Shown here: in pieces, positions 768 through 16,312 of the stretch
How the letters are laid out: each line of letters opens with the position of its first letter
Position numbering within the stretch: position 1 is the first letter of the stretch
Sequence record: ON637250.1
Length of the DNA stretch: 39,100 bases
Origin: Escherichia phage 6925
Strand: one strand, 5' to 3'
Notes under the pieces: generated by a model
What the model was told of the DNA's origin: nothing
Seen by the model: only the letters and a program-made list of their open reading frames with translations
Databases searched by the model: none
Made by a program: the position numbers and the translations under genes

Positions 768-1013
768 ATGAAACACTTAAGCACAATCACTAAACGCAAT
801 GAAGTATTCGTGAACACTAAAGGTTATGCGTGGATTCAGCTTAAAGAGATGACAGGATCGCGTCACCGTGTGGTAGTGCGCAAGGTATCAAGCAAGCAGT
901 TCAGCAACTACAGCGTCGATACTGTGCGTATAGACAACGAGACATACCTGATAGACTCGCAGATAACCGTGAGTCCTACAGTGGGCGTCTCAGCTCCTTA
1001 TTTCGCTAACTGA
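768..1013 (+). CDS. Hypothetical early protein, first gene of the early operon (about 81 aa); no T7 counterpart recognised
   Basis: ORF 759..1013 in the track. AAGGA at 755-759 sits 8 nt before the ATG at 768; the ATG at 759 has no spacer. It lies upstream of the ocr-like gene. Confidence 0.5.
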   Translation: MKHLSTITKRNEVFVNTKGYAWIQLKEMTGSRHRVVVRKVSSKQFSNYSVDTVRIDNETYLIDSQITVSPTVGVSAPYFAN

Positions 1014-1014
1014 G

Positions 1015-1068
1015 AGTGATTAACTACAGGTCGTTAGACTGATAGCGGCCTGACTGATAGTCACTAAC
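1015..1068 (+). promoter_or_regulatory. RNase III-like hairpin repeat (early intergenic)
   Basis: A second copy of the CTACAGGTC ... GGCCTGACTGATAGTCACTAAC motif, immediately before the ocr-like RBS. Confidence 0.4.
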
Positions 1069-1096
1069 ACATAATTAACTTTGAGAGGATATAACT

Positions 1097-1603
1097 ATGG
1101 AACGTAATGCTAACGCATACTATGAGCTGCTGGCTGCAACCGTTGAGGCATTTATCGAGCGTATTCAGTACGACCACCTGACTCAAGATGACGACTACAG
1201 CACTGCGCTGCATGAGGTCGTAGACGGTCAGGTTCCACACTATTACCACGAGATTTTTACGGTGATGGCTGCTGATGGTATAGACAACGAGTTCGAAGAC
1301 TCTGGGATGATACCTGAAACCAAGGACGTAACGCGTATCCTACAAGCTCGCATCTATGAGGCGCTTTATAACGATGTGTCTAATAGCTTGGATGTAGTCT
1401 GGTTTGAGGATGAAGAGGCAGACGAAGAGGATGAATATTGGGTAGTTGACGCTAAAACAGGCGCAATAATTGTGCAAGCTGTAGCTCTTGAGGTCGCTAC
1501 TGCATGTGCCAAGGTTAACTATGCGGCAGGTCGCCACCTGAAGGTGGAAGACATCAATGATAACGTAGTGTTCGACCCTGCGGCTGAGGACTGCGAGCGA
1601 TGA
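1097..1603 (+). CDS. 0.3: Ocr-like anti-restriction DNA mimic (T7 gene 0.3 homologue) with a C-terminal extension of about 50 aa
   Basis: [43 protein letters not shown] aligns with T7 Ocr as recalled ([43 protein letters not shown]), followed by an acidic [10 protein letters not shown] run. RBS GAGAGGA 7 nt upstream. T7 Ocr is 117 aa; this ORF is 168 aa. Confidence 0.85.
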   Translation: [168 protein letters not shown]

Positions 1604-1740
1604 TAAATTACGGTTTATGCCAGCACCACGTCACTAACGCCCGGCTTATGGTCAAGACCGGGCAGTTAGACCACGATTGGGCTATGCGTCTCTTGAAAGT
1701 GGTCTACAGGAGACGCAAGCGTATACACGACAGTTTACAC

Positions 1741-1795
1741 GCTAAGTGACAGACTACAGGTCATCAATGCTGGTGGCCTGACTGATAGTAATTAA
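1741..1795 (+). promoter_or_regulatory. RNase III-like hairpin repeat (early intergenic)
   Basis: A third copy: GACAGACTACAGGTCAT ... GGTGGCCTGACTGATAGTAA. Confidence 0.4.
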
Positions 1796-1812
1796 CAACT
1801 GAGAGGGAAGAT

Positions 1813-2040
1813 ATGAACACAATCACTGGTGCCATAACCAAAGGTTTTCGAGCAATTTTCGGTGAAACGCAAGAAGTATGCACCAATCATAAATTCGTAC
1901 TTTCTTGCGTAGCAGGTGACGAGTTTGACGGGTTCGATAAACTGGTGGTTTGCGACCATTGCGGACAAGAGGCTATCCAACACTCAAACGGTAAATTTGA
2001 ATTAATAGACGATAGCCTTACAGAAGGAGACGGCGAGTAA
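1813..2040 (+). CDS. Hypothetical early protein (75 aa) with four Cys (C-x8-C ... C-x2-C), possibly a zinc ribbon
   Basis: ORF with RBS GAGAGGG. Cys at residues 23, 32, 48 and 51 (CDHCG). Confidence 0.55.
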   Translation: MNTITGAITKGFRAIFGETQEVCTNHKFVLSCVAGDEFDGFDKLVVCDHCGQEAIQHSNGKFELIDDSLTEGDGE

Positions 2041-2094
2041 CCTAAATAAACAGGAGAGAACCAAATCATAGCTTGACCATAACACTGACGTGAT

Positions 2095-2145
2095 GGTACT
2101 GAGTGATAGACGAGAGGTCATCGACTGATAGGTGGCCTCAAAGAT
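2095..2145 (+). promoter_or_regulatory. RNase III-like hairpin repeat (degenerate copy)
   Basis: GAGAGGTCATCGACTGATAGGTGGCCTC resembles the other early repeats. Confidence 0.3.
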
Positions 2146-2213
2146 TACCACTTACATTGATAGGAGTTAACTATTAGCACTGCAATCGTCTGGACTATCT
2201 CAGGCTTAGTAGC

Positions 2214-2477
2214 GTGGGGAATGTTTACTCTAGTCTGCAAACTACCGGTCCTTACTCAACTGTTATGGGGCTTATGACTATGAGTATCGCACTATTGATA
2301 GCCATAGGCTATGGACTTATCGCCTACGTGCTGGTGAGAGACATCAACAAAGCGCGTAAAGTCTACAAATTCAACTATGTACGTCTGGGTAGCTGGACTG
2401 TACGTCAACCTAACGGACGATTCATGCGTAACTTAGCGAACGTCTGGGATATAGCAACACTTGGGAGCAAACTGTAA
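2214..2477 (+). CDS. Hypothetical small membrane protein; start uncertain (GTG at 2214 or an internal ATG at about 2265-2274)
   Basis: ORF with a hydrophobic segment SIALLIAIGYGLIAYVLV followed by a basic tail. No strong RBS. Its stop overlaps the next start (TAATG). Confidence 0.4.
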   Translation: MGNVYSSLQTTGPYSTVMGLMTMSIALLIAIGYGLIAYVLVRDINKARKVYKFNYVRLGSWTVRQPNGRFMRNLANVWDIATLGSKL

Positions 2478-2803
2478 TGAACAAGTCATACGGGATTAAT
2501 CTGGTACACTCTATGGACGCAGACATGCAAATGTTAAGCCTACTGGCTACCGGGTATCGTCACGGAACGTCAAGTCACTCCGCACGTCAACAGCAGGAGC
2601 GGGACCGGGTACTGCAAGCAAGACTCCGGGCTGATGGCCATATATACGAACTGATGAGTCTGGCGTATGGTGGACGACCAATCACTGACGATGGTAAACT
2701 TTTAGTCTCAGGCTGGAAGGCGATAGACCAACGGTCAACCATCAAGCACACGACTCATGGTGACTTCAGTCATCTTCACGCTAACCCACTGATATGCAAG
2801 TGA
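2477..2803 (+). CDS. Hypothetical early protein (108 aa), in the position T7 gene 0.7 occupies but not kinase-like
   Basis: ORF translationally coupled to the upstream gene (TAATG). No protein-kinase motifs recognised. Confidence 0.45.
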   Translation: MNKSYGINLVHSMDADMQMLSLLATGYRHGTSSHSARQQQERDRVLQARLRADGHIYELMSLAYGGRPITDDGKLLVSGWKAIDQRSTIKHTTHGDFSHLHANPLICK

Positions 2804-2808
2804 TTCTG

Positions 2809-2831
2809 ACTTAACTATCACTATAGGACTC
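2809..2831 (+). promoter_or_regulatory. Phage RNAP promoter, canonical copy, directly upstream of the RNAP gene
   Basis: ACTTAACTATCACTATA|GGACTC is identical in -17..-1 to the right-end promoter at 38496; +1 G at 2826. Confidence 0.6.
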
Positions 2832-2900
2832 AAGGTCTAAGACTCCAAGTGAAAGACCAAAGAGACTCTAAGTGAAAGACTAATAACAAGGACTTTAAGT

Positions 2901-5582
2901 ATGAGCGTCATCTCTATTGACAAGCACGACTTCTCTGATGTGTCGAACGCCATTGAGCCGTTTAACCTACTGGCTGACCACTACGGGCAAGACCTTGCAG
3001 TCAAACAGCTTCAGCTTGAGCACGAGGCATACACTGAAGGCGAGCGACGTTTCATCAAGAACCTTGAGAGACAGACTGAGCGAGGGGAACTGGCAGACAA
3101 TCAGGTCGCCAAGCCTTTGATGCAGACTCTGGTCCCTAAGATTGCGCAAGCCGTCAAGGAGTGGCATGAAGGTCCAGACGGGAAGCTGTCAACCTCTCGT
3201 CCAAGCGTAGCGTTCACCGTGTTGAGCACTGAAGAGAAGGCCGTCAAGGACCGCTCTATGCGCATCTCCTGTGAGTCCGCTGCGGTTATCATACTGAAGG
3301 TCATACTCTCCAAGCTGGTCAAGCCTGAAGGGATACCGATTACACCGATGGCCTCCGCGATAGGTCGCACACTTGAGGACGAAATCCGCTTCGGTCGCAT
3401 CCGTGACAAAGAGAAAGAGCACTTCAAGAAGGCGATAGCTGATAACCTGAATAAGCGGGCCGGGGCGTCATACAAGAAAGCCTACATGCAAGCGGTCGAG
3501 GCGTCCATGCTGGAGCAAGGCCAACTGGAAGATGCGTGGGGGACTTGGAGTCCTACAGAGGCTGTCCACGTTGGCATCAAGATGCTCGAGATTGTCATCC
3601 AGTCAACACAACTGGTCGAGCTTAAGCGGTACGGTGCTGGCAATGCAGCGGCTGATGTAGAGATGGTCCACCTGTCAGACTTCTGGGTCAAGAAGATGGC
3701 ACAACGAGGATTCAGCCTTGCGGGTATCGCTCCAGTCTATCAGCCTTGCGTCGTTCCACCTAAGCCGTGGACTGGTGTCGTAGGCGGTGGGTATTGGGCC
3801 AAAGGTCGAAGACCATTGCCACTGATTCGCTTAGGGTCTAAGTCTGCGGTATCACGCTACGAAGACGTGTATATGCCTGAAGTCTATGACGCTGTGAACA
3901 TCATTCAGAATACACCTTGGAAAGTGAACAAGAAGGTTCTGGAAGTGGTGAACATGGTCGAGAAGCTGAACAACACGCCTATTGATGACATCCCTCAGAT
4001 GGAACCGCTGAAGCCTGAGGACTATGCTGGTGAGACTGAAGAAGAACTCAAGGCATGGAAGAAGGCTGCTGCTGGTATCTATCGCCGCGAGAAGGCCAGA
4101 CAGTCACGAAGATTGTCACTGAGCTTTATCGTCAACCAAGCGAACAAGTTCTCTCAGTTCAAGGCCATCTGGTTCCCGTATAACATGGACTGGCGCGGTC
4201 GCGTCTACGCTGTGCCGATGTTCAACCCTCAGGGTAACGACATGCAAAAGGGTCTTCTGACTCTGGCAGTTGGTAAGCCTATTGGTGCTGATGGTTTCAA
4301 ATGGCTGAAGGTCCACGGTGCAAACTGCGCGGGTGTCGATAAAGTCACCTTCGAGGAGCGTATCAAGTGGGTGGAAGATAACCACGACAACATCATGGCT
4401 GCTGCCAAGGCACCGATGGATAGCATTGAGTGGTGGGGCAAGTTAGACTCTCCGTTCTGCTTCCTAGCGTTCTGCTTCGAGTATGCTGGCGTAATGCACC
4501 ACGGCTTGTCTTACTCCTGCTCGCTGCCGATAGCGTTCGATGGGTCCTGCTCTGGGATTCAGCACTTCAGCGCTATGCTTCGCGACCACATCGGTGGACA
4601 TGCAGTAAACCTGACGCCATCCGGTAAGGTCCAAGACATCTACCGCATCGTGTCTGACCGCATTGAGGAGGAGCTTAAAGTCCTACTGGTTAACGGTACG
4701 GACAACGAGATGGTAACTCACGAGGACAAGAAAACTGGTGAGATTACCGAACGTATCAAGCTGGGGACACGAGAGCTTGCCCGTCAGTGGCTGACCTACG
4801 GTATGTCACGAAAGGTCACTAAGCGTTCGGTCATGACTCTGGCCTACGGGTCGAAAGAGTACGGCTTCGCAGACCAAGTTTACGAGGACATCGTGATGCC
4901 AGCGATTGACTCAGGGTCTGGCGCTATGTTCACTGAACCAAGCCAAGCATCTCGCTTCATGGCTAAGATGATTTGGGAAGCTGTGAGTGTGACCGTAGTT
5001 GCTGCGGTTGACGCGATGAAGTGGCTTCAGGGTGCTGCCAAGCTGCTGGCTGCTGAAGTGAAGGACAAGAAGACTGGCGAAATCCTGAAGCCATGCCTTC
5101 CGGTACACTGGGTAACACCTGATGGTTTCCCTGTCTGGCAGGAATACCGCAAGAAGGATACCACTCGTCTGAACCTGATGTTCTTAGGGTCATTCAACCT
5201 TCAGCCTACAGTCAACAAAGGAACGAAGAAAGAGCTTGACAAGCACAAGCAGGAGTCAGGCATTAGCCCTAACTTCGTCCACTCACAAGATGGTAGCCAC
5301 CTGCGGAAGACTGTAGTCCACACTCACCGCAAGTATGGCGTGATGTCATTCGCAGTGATTCACGATAGCTTCGGGACCATCCCTGCTGACGCTGAGTATC
5401 TGTTCCGTGGTGTCCGTGAGACGATGGTCGAGACATACCGCGATAACGATGTGCTGCTTGACTTCTACGAGCAGTTTGAATACCAGCTTCATGAAAGTCA
5501 GCGCGACAAGTTGCCTGAGCTTCCGAAGAAAGGTAAACTGAATATCGAAGACATCTTGTCTTCAGACTTTGCATTCGCTTAA
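2901..5582 (+). CDS. 1: T7-like single-subunit DNA-dependent RNA polymerase
   Basis: 893 aa, collinear with T7 RNAP as recalled, including DGSCSGIQHFSAMLRD, HDSFGT and the C-terminal FAFA. RBS AAGGA. Confidence 0.97.
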   Translation: MSVISIDKHDFSDVSNAIEPFNLLADHYGQDLAVKQLQLEHEAYTEGERRFIKNLERQTERGELADNQVAKPLMQTLVPKIAQAVKEWHEGPDGKLSTSRPSVAFTVLSTEEKAVKDRSMRISCESAAVIILKVILSKLVKPEGIPITPMASAIGRTLEDEIRFGRIRDKEKEHFKKAIADNLNKRAGASYKKAYMQAVEASMLEQGQLEDAWGTWSPTEAVHVGIKMLEIVIQSTQLVELKRYGAGNAAADVEMVHLSDFWVKKMAQRGFSLAGIAPVYQPCVVPPKPWTGVVGGGYWAKGRRPLPLIRLGSKSAVSRYEDVYMPEVYDAVNIIQNTPWKVNKKVLEVVNMVEKLNNTPIDDIPQMEPLKPEDYAGETEEELKAWKKAAAGIYRREKARQSRRLSLSFIVNQANKFSQFKAIWFPYNMDWRGRVYAVPMFNPQGNDMQKGLLTLAVGKPIGADGFKWLKVHGANCAGVDKVTFEERIKWVEDNHDNIMAAAKAPMDSIEWWGKLDSPFCFLAFCFEYAGVMHHGLSYSCSLPIAFDGSCSGIQHFSAMLRDHIGGHAVNLTPSGKVQDIYRIVSDRIEEELKVLLVNGTDNEMVTHEDKKTGEITERIKLGTRELARQWLTYGMSRKVTKRSVMTLAYGSKEYGFADQVYEDIVMPAIDSGSGAMFTEPSQASRFMAKMIWEAVSVTVVAAVDAMKWLQGAAKLLAAEVKDKKTGEILKPCLPVHWVTPDGFPVWQEYRKKDTTRLNLMFLGSFNLQPTVNKGTKKELDKHKQESGISPNFVHSQDGSHLRKTVVHTHRKYGVMSFAVIHDSFGTIPADAEYLFRGVRETMVETYRDNDVLLDFYEQFEYQLHESQRDKLPELPKKGKLNIEDILSSDFAFA

Positions 5583-8662: not shown

Positions 8663-8734
8663 ATGATGTTCGAGAAGACAGGTAACACTGACTACCTTGA
8701 ATTGTATAACCAGTGGAAGGAGCGCGGTTTATGA
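8663..8734 (+). CDS. Possible mini-ORF (23 aa) coupled to gene 2
   Basis: ATG-ATG start; stop overlaps the gene 2 ATG (ATGA). No other support. Confidence 0.2.
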
Positions 8735-8889
8735 CTGAGGTTGAGAAGAAATACATCGTGGAGCTTGAGGGTCGCGTTCAGTCCTTCGAGGTTCCGTTGT
8801 ACGCAAAGTCTCTTGAAGAGGCTACCCTGAAGTCCCAAGAGTATGAGGACGCTGGGTTTATGGTCGGACGGATTCGTCCTGAGACCTAA
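8731..8889 (+). CDS. 2: gp2-like inhibitor of host RNA polymerase (52 aa)
   Basis: Own translation: [52 protein letters not shown]. The SFEVPLYA and AGF-V-R-RP blocks match T7 gp2 as recalled. Below the 60-aa track cutoff. Confidence 0.7.
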
Positions 8890-15835: not shown

Positions 15836-16106
15836 ACGTATTCGTGTGAGTTTTGATCTGAAGATGGTTGTTAACTCAAAGGAAGAAGATACCATGTGTC
15901 GCCAACTGGCTGAGATGACTAAAGCCTACGCTGAGGGTGAGGAGCTGGATGGTCTTCAGTTGGCTATGGTAAAAACCGCAATCGAGTCAGGCCCTGAGTC
16001 TGCCCTTGAAATTGCCCTCAAGAAGACCATCAAGGAGGAGCTGGTAGACGACTTTGGTTATGGCCAGTTCGGAGTATCTAACCTGCGATTCGAGGTCAAG
16101 CAATGA
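15822..16106 (+). CDS. 5.5: gp5.5-like protein
   Basis: N-terminus MAITKRIRVSFDL matches T7 gp5.5 (MAMTKKFKVSFDV) as recalled. RBS CAGGAGAAG. Confidence 0.7.
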   Translation: MAITKRIRVSFDLKMVVNSKEEDTMCRQLAEMTKAYAEGEELDGLQLAMVKTAIESGPESALEIALKKTIKEELVDDFGYGQFGVSNLRFEVKQ

Positions 16107-16312
16107 GTGAATACTTACGGGTCCTAGCGGCCCTTAAGTCCTGCCCGAAGACCTTCCAGTCCAACTACGTGCGCAACAATGCGGCACTGGTGGCTGAGGC
16201 TGCGAGTCGTGGACATCTGAGCTGTCTGTCTATGGACGGGCGTAACAACGGTGCGTGGGAGATTACCGCTGCTGGCACCAAGTTCCTGAACCAACATGGA
16301 GGATGCCTGTGA
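16103..16312 (+). CDS. 5.7: gp5.7-like protein
   Basis: MSEYLRVL..LK.CP.TFQSNYVRNNA.LVAEAASRGH.SCL...GRN.GAWEITA.GT.FL...GGC matches T7 gp5.7 as recalled. Confidence 0.75.
   Translation: MSEYLRVLAALKSCPKTFQSNYVRNNAALVAEAASRGHLSCLSMDGRNNGAWEITAAGTKFLNQHGGCL

Follow-up and report, generated by a model that had tools for sequence, protein, structure and literature searches.

Two of the three small genes that precede gene 1 in Escherichia phage 6925, ORF B and ORF C, belong to the conserved core of early genes, are independent of a gp0.7-type kinase and are not its replacement. The third, ORF A, is the only variable insertion among the three and was gained by horizontal transfer. Judged by its sequence, the window analysed here, the whole 39,100-nucleotide stretch of record ON637250.1, is a K1F-like (Kayfunavirus) coliphage genome, 98.9% identical to phage HC12 (Kayfunavirus) over positions 1000–3000 and with 225 related records. 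In the explanation that we favour, and which we consider probable as a whole, positions 1813–2803 would form the right-hand part of a class I early operon transcribed by the host polymerase, and this operon would be a mosaic. The label of host-takeover effectors that the preliminary description attached to the three genes drew on gene position and nothing else.

From left to right (Table 1), the region comprises Ocr, a gp0.4 homologue, a hairpin, the ORF A cassette, an R0.5-type RNase III site, a 34-aa hydrophobic peptide, ORF B of the T3 gp0.6 family, ORF C, a phage promoter and gene 1. Phages K1F, LM33_P1 and HC12, in all of which gene 1 is annotated as a T7-type RNA polymerase, share the order Ocr, 49-aa gene, variable slot, gp0.6, ORF C, promoter and gene 1. 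This early block is ordinary for the clade and already catalogued, dozens of near-identical phage genomes listing the products of ORFs A, B and C as hypothetical proteins. Because a scan of the plus strand found no phage promoter upstream of 2814 and a σ70-like site lies at 552–581, the block is assigned to the early class. The exact ACTATCACTATAGG core of the phage promoter occurs in eight copies on the genome, a count that no shuffle reached, and the flanks of the first copy match those of the other promoters. A candidate σ70 “B promoter” at 2072–2101 (TTGACC, 18 nt, TACTGA) was rejected, its −10 element matching at 2/6 positions and the scan making no call there. Rfam and tRNA scans of the whole window gave no match.

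Table 1. Features of the early region of phage 6925, numbered from the first nucleotide of the window
Feature	Position	Strand	Basis or remark
Ocr-like anti-restriction protein (gene 0.3), 168 aa	1097..1603	+	Pfam ocr E 4.4e-28, residues 8-94
49-aa T7 gp0.4 homologue (FtsZ-inhibitor family)	1600..1749	+	phrog_5058; hhalign
RNase III-type hairpin (predicted), 10-bp stem	1742..1797	+	upstream copy of 45-bp direct repeat flanking ORF A cassette
Horizontally shared cassette: RBS, ORF A, orphan RBS of next Kagunavirus gene	1793..2066	+	nucleotide identity
ORF A, 75 aa	1813..2040	+	phrog_32657 E 1.7e-53
R0.5-type RNase III site (predicted)	2099..2156	+	downstream copy of D1/D9 direct repeat
34-aa hydrophobic ORF, positional analogue of T7 gene 0.5	2173..2277	+	annotated in HC12
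ORF B, T3-gp0.6-type membrane protein, 65-67 aa	2274..2477	+	phrog_2385 E 1.2e-32
ORF C, 108 aa	2477..2803	+	phrog_7066 E 1.1e-41
Phage-RNA-polymerase promoter, first on genome	2810..2829	+	exact ACTATCACTATAGG core; 70 nt upstream of gene 1
Gene 1, T7-type RNA polymerase, 893 aa, right boundary of block	2901..5582	+	ORF listing

The ORF listing gives frames at 1813–2040 (75 aa), 2214–2477 (87 aa from a GTG) and 2477–2803 (108 aa). PHROG family matches and purifying selection, with dN/dS of 0.05–0.09 for ORF A and 0.29 for both ORF B and ORF C, bear out the preliminary description in treating all three as real genes. It was equally right that none of them is kinase-like and that they are uncharacterised: no published function was found, Pfam, NCBIfam, PADLOC, PDB sequences and the literature held no match for any of the three, and a literature search by accession and PHROG id returned no paper on these genes.

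The absence of a gp0.7-type kinase is likewise upheld. Tblastn with T7 and T3 gp0.7 against the whole 39.1 kb gave best E values of 2.2 and 0.34, while the same queries do detect the kinase in relatives, and no ORF located between gene 0.3 (Ocr) and gene 1 is longer than 108 aa. No protein of ~240–370 aa carrying the kinase core motifs GxGHFxAA, IKVGFKKxDSGAAY, FDxHxxN and ITDPVS was found upstream of gene 1, and the annotation of HC12 lists a gp1.7-type nucleotide kinase as its sole kinase. T7 gp0.7, a Ser/Thr kinase with a host shut-off domain, thus has no counterpart in the window. The record of K1F itself also contains no gp0.7 kinase, its early region lacking gene 0.7 as the window does, and the missing T7-type kinase is the usual, known state of the K1F clade. 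Since a gp2-like inhibitor (8731–8886) and a gp5.7-like inhibitor (16103–16309) are present, host transcription shut-off would need no gp0.7 in this phage.

What does not hold is the claim that the small genes stand here instead of genes 0.4–0.7. Among 24 related genomes picked for carrying ORF C, seven, including that of the Kayfunavirus SFPH2, carry a 244-aa kinase-only gp0.7 beside ORF B and ORF C, and because both genes coexist with this kinase in a sister lineage, they are not kinase substitutes. In this SFPH2-type lineage, the kinase domain is 34% identical to T7 gp0.7, and the protein is without the final ~115 residues of T7 gp0.7, among them the shut-off domain. In phage records more widely, ~47 have the 244-aa kinase-only gp0.7 at ≥60% identity versus 212 that have ORF C. 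Nor is gene 0.4 missing. The gene directly after gene 0.3, whose start, as in T7, overlaps with the stop of gene 0.3, is a homologue of T7 gp0.4 in the same position (blastp E 0.002, 34% identity over 41 aa; family-to-family hhalign 96%, E 4e-9, 43 columns), and by this homology it is a putative FtsZ inhibitor. K1F infection mislocalises FtsZ (PMC9372555), and in a Kayfunavirus paper of 2026 the gene that follows the DNA mimic is given the annotation of FtsZ inhibitor (PMC13298934). The gene lies just to the left of 1813–2803 and was overlooked in the preliminary description. The Ocr-like protein before it is 59% identical to T7 gp0.3 and has ~50 additional C-terminal residues.

Between the gp0.4 homologue and ORF B, the region is organized around two hairpins, which form the two copies of a 45-bp direct repeat (D1/D9) flanking the ORF A insert. 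The upstream hairpin has a predicted fold of −17 kcal/mol and resembles a hairpin at ~1012–1066, upstream of gene 0.3. The downstream one aligns with the annotated R0.5 stem-loop of T3 and folds into a 9-bp upper stem and a lower stem, and its arrangement of stem, internal loop and stem would place it among the T7-type RNase III sites (R0.5); the fold z-scores of the hairpins are modest (−1.5 to −1.6). ORF A was inserted between these two copies of the processing hairpin, and it should thus end up on its own RNase III-cut mRNA. K1F, on the other hand, has a single hairpin and no ORF A cassette, and in the place of the cassette it has a 55-aa hydrophobic gene. A relationship of this 55-aa protein to T7 gp0.5 was considered and rejected (hhalign 0.3%). 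Downstream of the second hairpin lies the 34-aa hydrophobic ORF, a further gene that the preliminary description did not record; it has TAGGAG 6 nt upstream of its start, which is ATT in the window and ATG in HC12, LM33_P1 and L017.

An accessory module of the size of one gene, ORF A has been exchanged with unrelated siphoviruses of the genus Kagunavirus. The cassette is 87–88% identical at the nucleotide level to Kagunavirus 22664BS2 and Bas70 over exactly its own extent, and the 56 phage records with ORF A span Kayfunavirus and Kagunavirus at 90–100% amino-acid identity, the protein being 100% identical in LM33_P1 and HC12. Kagunavirus siphoviruses K1ind1, Golestan, Bas70/73/75 and 22664BS2 carry ORF A at 74–93% amino-acid and ~88% nucleotide identity, in genomes and virions of a completely different type from those of the window and with no neighbour genes in common. 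In the two Kagunavirus records examined, ORF A opens a run of same-strand early genes, which in Bas70 ends with an exonuclease, and the more divergent copies also lie in Kagunavirus-like early clusters. Homologues are few, forming just six clusters among 5.8 billion proteins.

The protein is acidic (pI 4.5; 14 D+E versus 5 K+R) and has four Cys residues (C23, C32, C47 and C50) with the spacing C-x8-C-x14-C-x2-C, which are invariant in all six true homologues and in the Kagunavirus copies. As for the zinc ribbon proposed earlier, four conserved candidate ligands are present, with one CxxC and the other pair as C-x8-C; since this spacing is not the canonical pair of CxxC knuckles, metal binding is possible rather than established. 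The AlphaFold2 model shows four short strands at low confidence (pLDDT 55), and with this low-confidence model Foldseek returned nothing below E 0.8, Trm112 being matched among PDB folds at E 1.2; a PDB sequence search gave nothing meaningful. We propose tentatively that ORF A, a small acidic protein, might bind metal and neutralise a defence or another host factor found in particular E. coli lineages, a reading that is plausible and short of likely.

ORF B belongs to the family of T3 gp0.6. Its start is the ATG at 2274 or 2280 and not the GTG at 2214, since nearly all of the 117 clusters homologous to it are 64–67 aa long and K1F gp0.6, to which it is 94% identical, aligns to residues 23–87 of the 87-aa call; the over-extended start overlaps the 34-aa hydrophobic ORF. 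Of the membrane-anchored protein of ~87 aa described earlier, the anchor therefore stands, as a single N-terminal hydrophobic helix (Kyte-Doolittle 2.35 over MSIALLIAIGYGLIAYVLV), and the length does not, being really 65–67 aa. The remainder is a basic C-terminal domain (pI 10.7). T3 gp0.6 (65 aa, with relatives in Teetrevirus and Przondovirus) has the same length, the same N-terminal helix and the block (R/W)(F/T)TVRxxNGRF, and like ORF B it lies downstream of an R0.5 RNase III site. The two are ~40% identical (blastp E 5e-8; hhalign 98.5%, E 3e-15), and ORF B thus combines a length of ~65 aa, a membrane helix, the TVRxxNGRF block and profile homology. The preliminary description named homology of the three ORFs to T7 gp0.4, gp0.5 or gp0.6 as a finding that would refute it, and the kinship of ORF B comes close to this in substance, although it is with the gp0.6 of T3 and not with that of T7. 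T7 gp0.6 and gp0.6A (the MreB inhibitor) were tried as relatives and rejected (hhalign 0.4%), and a 12-column TVxxP(D/N)G resemblance to T7 gp0.6 is not significant given the post-hoc choice of the motif. What follows also differs, since in T3 gp0.6 is succeeded by gp0.65 and gp0.7, and in the window ORF B is succeeded by ORF C and gene 1. Of the 24 genomes that were chosen for carrying ORF C, 23 also have ORF B. The accessible literature yielded no function for T3 gp0.6. It is conceivable, and we would call it rather doubtful, that ORF B resides in the inner membrane, its basic domain facing the cytoplasm, and acts at the membrane on a conserved enterobacterial function, for example by excluding later-arriving phage DNA or by acting on an envelope or cell-shape machine.

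The start of ORF C overlaps the stop of ORF B (TAATG, 2475–2479), which suggests translational coupling. The protein is basic (pI 9.3), with a helical core at residues 33–88 in an AlphaFold2 model of pLDDT 63, the confidence of the ORF A and ORF C models being low to moderate, and it has a conserved tail, HTTxGDFSHLHxNPLICK, a motif that the most divergent members retain. Only Kayfunavirus-like phages have ORF C, and it is always next to gene 1, which it adjoins in 24/24 of the genomes selected for carrying it; in K1F it is shorter and unannotated. Both its sequence and its position directly upstream of gene 1 place it in the family of phrog_7066 and EcoDS1 Gp0.38. Homologues form 142 clusters, a tblastn match in CR8 is annotated 0.38, and Foldseek returned members of its own family only (BFVD), with EcoDS1 Gp0.38 and a CR8 protein among the top matches. 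Neither Foldseek against the PDB nor a PDB sequence search gave anything meaningful, and no relative of known function was detected. When the ORF C profile was run as a full HMM search against 1.84 billion representatives, it gave 14 matches, all small but one. The exception, a 1594-aa protein, matches the helical segment alone (profile positions 16–52) in repeats and is probably not a true relative. The invariant C-terminal peptide of ORF C may possibly serve to dock it on a conserved protein of the host, although we regard this as somewhat doubtful. In the last 45 codons of ORF C, synonymous divergence falls (pS 0.24 versus 0.53), which could partly reflect constraint at the DNA or RNA level or recombination beside gene 1, in addition to protein function.

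This fall, together with the crowding of the region by regulatory hairpins and a promoter, is what would speak for a different account, in which at least one of the ORFs is not a gene and is conserved because of signals in the DNA or RNA ahead of gene 1. Such an account is already largely refuted and is extremely improbable, given dN/dS values of 0.09–0.29 with a third-position excess in all three ORFs, a motif in ORF C that is kept in members whose surrounding sequence differs, and the conservation of ORF A in two unrelated genomic contexts. It is also quite unlikely that the three genes stand in for T7 genes 0.4–0.7 and do the host-takeover job of the kinase. They do sit between gene 0.3 and gene 1, are transcribed early and have no known function, but gp0.4 is retained, ORF B and ORF C are found beside the kinase-only gp0.7 in relatives as described above, and the T3 gp0.6 family coexists with gp0.7 in T3-like phages (jackhmmer, 62 ORFs from 80 gp0.7-bearing loci); furthermore, ORF A is sporadic and occurs also in siphoviruses, which have no T7-type early programme. 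For ORF C, we considered a free-standing C-terminal shut-off domain of gp0.7, or T3 gp0.65. Each of these three is located either immediately upstream of gene 1 or directly behind gene 0.6, the related Kayfunavirus kinase stops after its catalytic domain without that C-terminal domain, and ORF C bears a weak LxxMAYG-type likeness to T3 gp0.65 (HMM 4.8 bits). Against these points, hhalign gives 0.8% versus an alignment of 74 gp0.7 C-terminal domains (last ~115 residues) and 0.9–2.2%, profile to profile, versus the gp0.65 family, and the HMM search of 1.84 billion proteins recovered no protein of gp0.7 length; both identities were thus rejected and we judge them highly improbable.

Two further proposals concern what these proteins do, and we infer function for all three. 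ORF B and ORF C could be a membrane-associated superinfection-exclusion pair, in which ORF B recruits the soluble, basic ORF C and the entry of DNA from later-arriving phages is blocked. The overlapping stop and start, the single membrane helix and basic tail of ORF B, the early expression of both and their constant adjacency, save for homing-endonuclease insertions, are consistent with such a pair, which is nevertheless unlikely, as T3-like phages throughout have ORF B without ORF C, L017 has ORF C without ORF B, and neither protein is similar to known exclusion proteins. Similarly improbable is a role for ORF A outside counter-defence, as a small zinc-finger protein that binds nucleic acid and regulates transcription or translation of the phage or the host. 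Four invariant Cys residues and predicted β-strands would suit it, as would its setting in Kagunavirus, where ORF A heads an operon next to a divergent transcriptional regulator; on the other hand, so strongly acidic a protein would be an unusual nucleic-acid binder, and its sporadic, horizontally transferred distribution fits an accessory host-specific role better than that of a core regulator.

As a discovery, these findings carry little weight, the missing kinase being a known trait of the clade. Their practical value lies in a sharper candidate list for work on therapeutic phages of the K1F or LM33_P1 type. For a host-specific accessory or counter-defence gene, the best candidate is ORF A, because it has moved between unrelated phages with common hosts; for a genus-wide host-binding effector, it is ORF C, whose tail is invariant. 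According to Jiang et al. 2024, as cited in PMC11680406, gp0.7 is reported to help T7 to evade several defence systems; kinase-less Kayfunaviruses may be more exposed to those systems, or may counter them with other genes. ORF A could be a new metal-binding counter-defence cassette and ORF C at the same time a genus-specific takeover protein, a combination that we consider speculative and rather unlikely. If it is true, ORF A would move between podoviruses of the genus Kayfunavirus and siphoviruses of the genus Kagunavirus, both infecting the same extra-intestinal E. coli strains, and ORF C, in binding a conserved host target through its HTTxGDFSHLH tail, would provide a kinase-independent route to host control.

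The region between 1813 and 2803 is an ordinary, already-catalogued early block of Kayfunavirus, the genus of K1F-like members of the T7 group that includes the Escherichia phages HC12 and LM33_P1. Over positions 1000-3000 the window is 98.9% identical to HC12 and 98.3% to LM33_P1, and 225 phage records in all match this interval. As the preliminary description had proposed, the window encodes no counterpart of gp0.7, the kinase and host shut-off protein of T7 and T3: queries with both proteins against its whole length returned nothing better than E 0.34-2.2, the only kinase listed in the HC12 annotation is a gp1.7-type nucleotide kinase, and the K1F record passes from gene 0.6 to gene 1 with no gene 0.7 between them. 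Since HC12 and K1F also lack gp0.7, the missing kinase is an established trait of the clade rather than a peculiarity of this genome. With a gp2-like inhibitor (8731-8886) and a gp5.7-like protein (16103-16309) encoded in the window, host shut-off would not depend on gp0.7.

Genes of the left end, in order
Feature	Coordinates	Strand	Support
84-aa ORF (leftmost)			
Ocr-like gene (gene 0.3)	1097-1603	+	Pfam ocr, E 4e-28
49-aa ORF (gp0.4 homologue)	1600-1749	+	hhalign 96%, E 4e-9
ORF A (four-Cys protein, 75 aa)	1813-2040	+	
ORF B (membrane protein)	end at 2477	+	
ORF C (108 aa)	2477-2803	+	
RNA polymerase gene (gene 1)	2901-5582	+	

ORF A, ORF B and ORF C are real genes, belonging to PHROG families of no known function and with dN/dS of 0.05-0.29, but the proposal that they stand instead of the kinase does not hold. 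Our comparison set comprised 24 genomes (22 fetched viral contigs encoding ORF C, the window and K1F), all selected for ORF C, and within this selection ORF B occurs in 23. In 7 of the 24, SFPH2 included, ORF B and ORF C lie beside a kinase-only gp0.7, a 244-aa protein that aligns to the T7 gp0.7 kinase domain at 34% identity, keeps every core motif and ends before the C-terminal shut-off domain; the gene order in the Kayfunavirus SFPH2 is SAM hydrolase, small genes, kinase, ORF B, ORF C. In the phage database the kinase is found at 60% identity or more in about 47 records, against 212 for ORF C. ORF B and ORF C thus form a constant core, with the kinase as one of several optional modules. The kinase-only lineage is represented by contigs L013, L014, L019, L020, L021, L023 and L028 and by SFPH2 (contig L115, 2501-3235), and over the stretches covered it has neither Ocr nor a gp0.4 homologue. 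At the leftmost slot, 12 of the 24 genomes carry Ocr and five carry a 142-aa protein of no known function; the remaining seven are the kinase lineage without Ocr, and in SFPH2, the only one of them with annotation, a T3-type SAM hydrolase takes this place. The 142-aa protein (L008, L009, L010, L011 and L025, for example L025 85-513) is a candidate for an alternative anti-restriction or anti-defence function. In the window itself, the Ocr-like protein has 168 aa against 117 in T7, with about 50 additional C-terminal residues after the acidic stretch that match no family.

T7 gene 0.4 had also been taken as absent. The 49-aa ORF immediately to the left of this region is, on profile similarity, a gp0.4 homologue: it matches T7 gp0.4 directly (blastp E 0.002, 34% identity), the two families align as listed in the table, and T7 gp0.4 shares its overlapping start. 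Of the genes 0.4, 0.5 and 0.6 to which kinship had been in question, ORF B shows none detectable with T7 gp0.6A (hhalign 0.4%), whereas its match to T3 gp0.6 (blastp E 5e-8; hhalign 98.5%, E 3e-15) places it by sequence in the T3 gp0.6 family. Its reported length of 87 aa was excessive. The 65-aa gp0.6 of K1F pairs with residues 23-87 (94% identical), and of the 117 homologous clusters nearly all fall at 64-67 aa; the GTG at 2214 is therefore too early a start, and the true one is ATG 2274 or 2280. The stretch upstream of these codons holds, in another frame, a 34-aa hydrophobic ORF (2173-2277) with a TAGGAG ribosome-binding site, annotated in HC12. At its start codon (2173-2175) the window has ATT where HC12, LM33_P1 and L017 have ATG; this G-to-T change at 2175 is either an error of sequencing or a mutation that weakens the start.

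ORF B (dN/dS 0.29, with third-position excess) is under purifying selection and is conserved across T3-like, K11-like and K1F-like phages, a breadth which points to a generic membrane-level task. Its basic tail is assumed to be cytoplasmic under the positive-inside rule; a role in exclusion or envelope interference is proposed with low confidence. In four contigs a 140-aa Cys-rich protein is inserted precisely at the junction of ORF B with ORF C (L009 2573-2998, L020 2576-2998, L021 2618-3052, L023 2576-2998) and by eye resembles a homing endonuclease of HNH/endonuclease VII type. In L017 (1333-1551) ORF B is lost, and the last residues of the endonuclease (…KYLQENQ) are all that remains of the insert.

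ORF C is likewise under purifying selection (dN/dS 0.29, third-position excess). It matches 142 clusters, each lying on a phage-sized contig or a short fragment, and a full HMM search across 1.84 billion representatives yielded only a handful of further, small proteins. The N-terminus of the family is variable, with forms of 83-86, 108 and 130-139 aa, and is followed by a core, ERDxVLxxRxxAEGxK...YGGxP...DGKLL...QR, and a tail, HTTxGDFSHLH, kept even in the most divergent members. As the extreme ends differ, retention of this motif indicates constraint on the protein. Among relatives, pS over the last 45 codons (2665-2803) is 0.24 against 0.53 in the preceding codons, which suggests either added constraint at the nucleic-acid level or frequent recombination in the part adjoining gene 1. 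In the structure model residues 33-88 form three helices predicted with confidence (pLDDT about 80), and the tail, modelled with low confidence, would fit a peptide that folds upon partner binding; that this tail binds a conserved host protein is a reading we put forward tentatively. Foldseek recovered family members only, such as EcoDS1 Gp0.38. Two identities prompted by position were rejected on profile comparison, namely a detached gp0.7 shut-off domain (0.8%) and a relative of T3 gp0.65 (0.9-2.2%).

ORF A behaves as a mobile cassette. It matches only six clusters among 5.8 billion proteins and is found in 56 phage-collection records, from Kayfunavirus podoviruses and Kagunavirus siphoviruses (K1ind1, Golestan, Bas70 and 22664BS2 among the latter), at 74-100% amino-acid identity. 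Window positions 1793-2066 are 87-88% identical in nucleotides to the Kagunavirus copies, a span running from the ribosome-binding site through an orphan AGGAGA that serves the next gene in Kagunavirus, which hints at transfer into Kayfunavirus. Direct repeats of 45 bp, at 1742-1786 and at 2099-2145, flank the insert and both contain a stable hairpin, whereas K1F has one such copy and no cassette. Between copies from these two unrelated phage groups dN/dS is 0.05-0.09, indicating purifying selection. The protein is acidic (pI 4.5) with four invariant cysteines (C-x8-C-x14-C-x2-C); its structure was modelled poorly (pLDDT 55), and no fold match reached significance. An accessory protein for counter-defence or host-factor binding would fit its early position, its acidity, its patchy occurrence and its transfer between phages obtained on the same host strains, of which the strain-22664 pair 22664BS1 and 22664BS2 is one example; we put this reading forward tentatively. 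In P0006 (a 1867-bp contig of a public E. coli assembly) a natural deletion joins about 100 N-terminal residues of Ocr directly to the final 24 of ORF A; the Ocr extension, most of ORF A and the gp0.4 homologue are lost, and the intervening genes thus appear dispensable.

The leftmost plus-strand match to the phage promoter core is an exact ACTATCACTATAGG at 2814-2827, a sequence with eight exact copies, a count reached by no shuffle. With no such promoter further left, everything leftward would be readable by host polymerase only, and by position and analogy with T7 the three ORFs would be class I early genes. The full-consensus promoter (2810-2829) lies 70 nt upstream of gene 1 and would allow positive feedback on the polymerase's own gene; the T7 annotation has no such promoter before gene 1. 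K1F has the same element, and in phage Sparklingdew it was reported at the 3' end of the preceding gene (PMC13298934). The hairpin at 2099-2156 aligns with the annotated RNase III site R0.5 of T3, so R0.5 followed by gene 0.6 is an arrangement conserved with T3. Related hairpin or repeat elements (AGTGAxAGAC…GGTC…GGCC) at ~1012-1066, 1742-1797, 2099-2156 and 2840-2883 precede gene 0.3, ORF A, the ORF B group and gene 1, respectively, and are probably a set of RNase III processing sites. What is shown comprises gene content, homology, mobility and selection. The mechanism would follow T7 and T3: host polymerase would transcribe the early block from left-end promoters, and RNase III would cut at the hairpins, leaving ORF A on a separate processed message.

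The original observation is largely correct and its interpretation only partly so. To it are added corrected gene calls, the homologies to gp0.4 and T3 gp0.6, evidence for ORF B and ORF C as kinase-independent core genes, and the finding that ORF A is a cassette common to different phage families.
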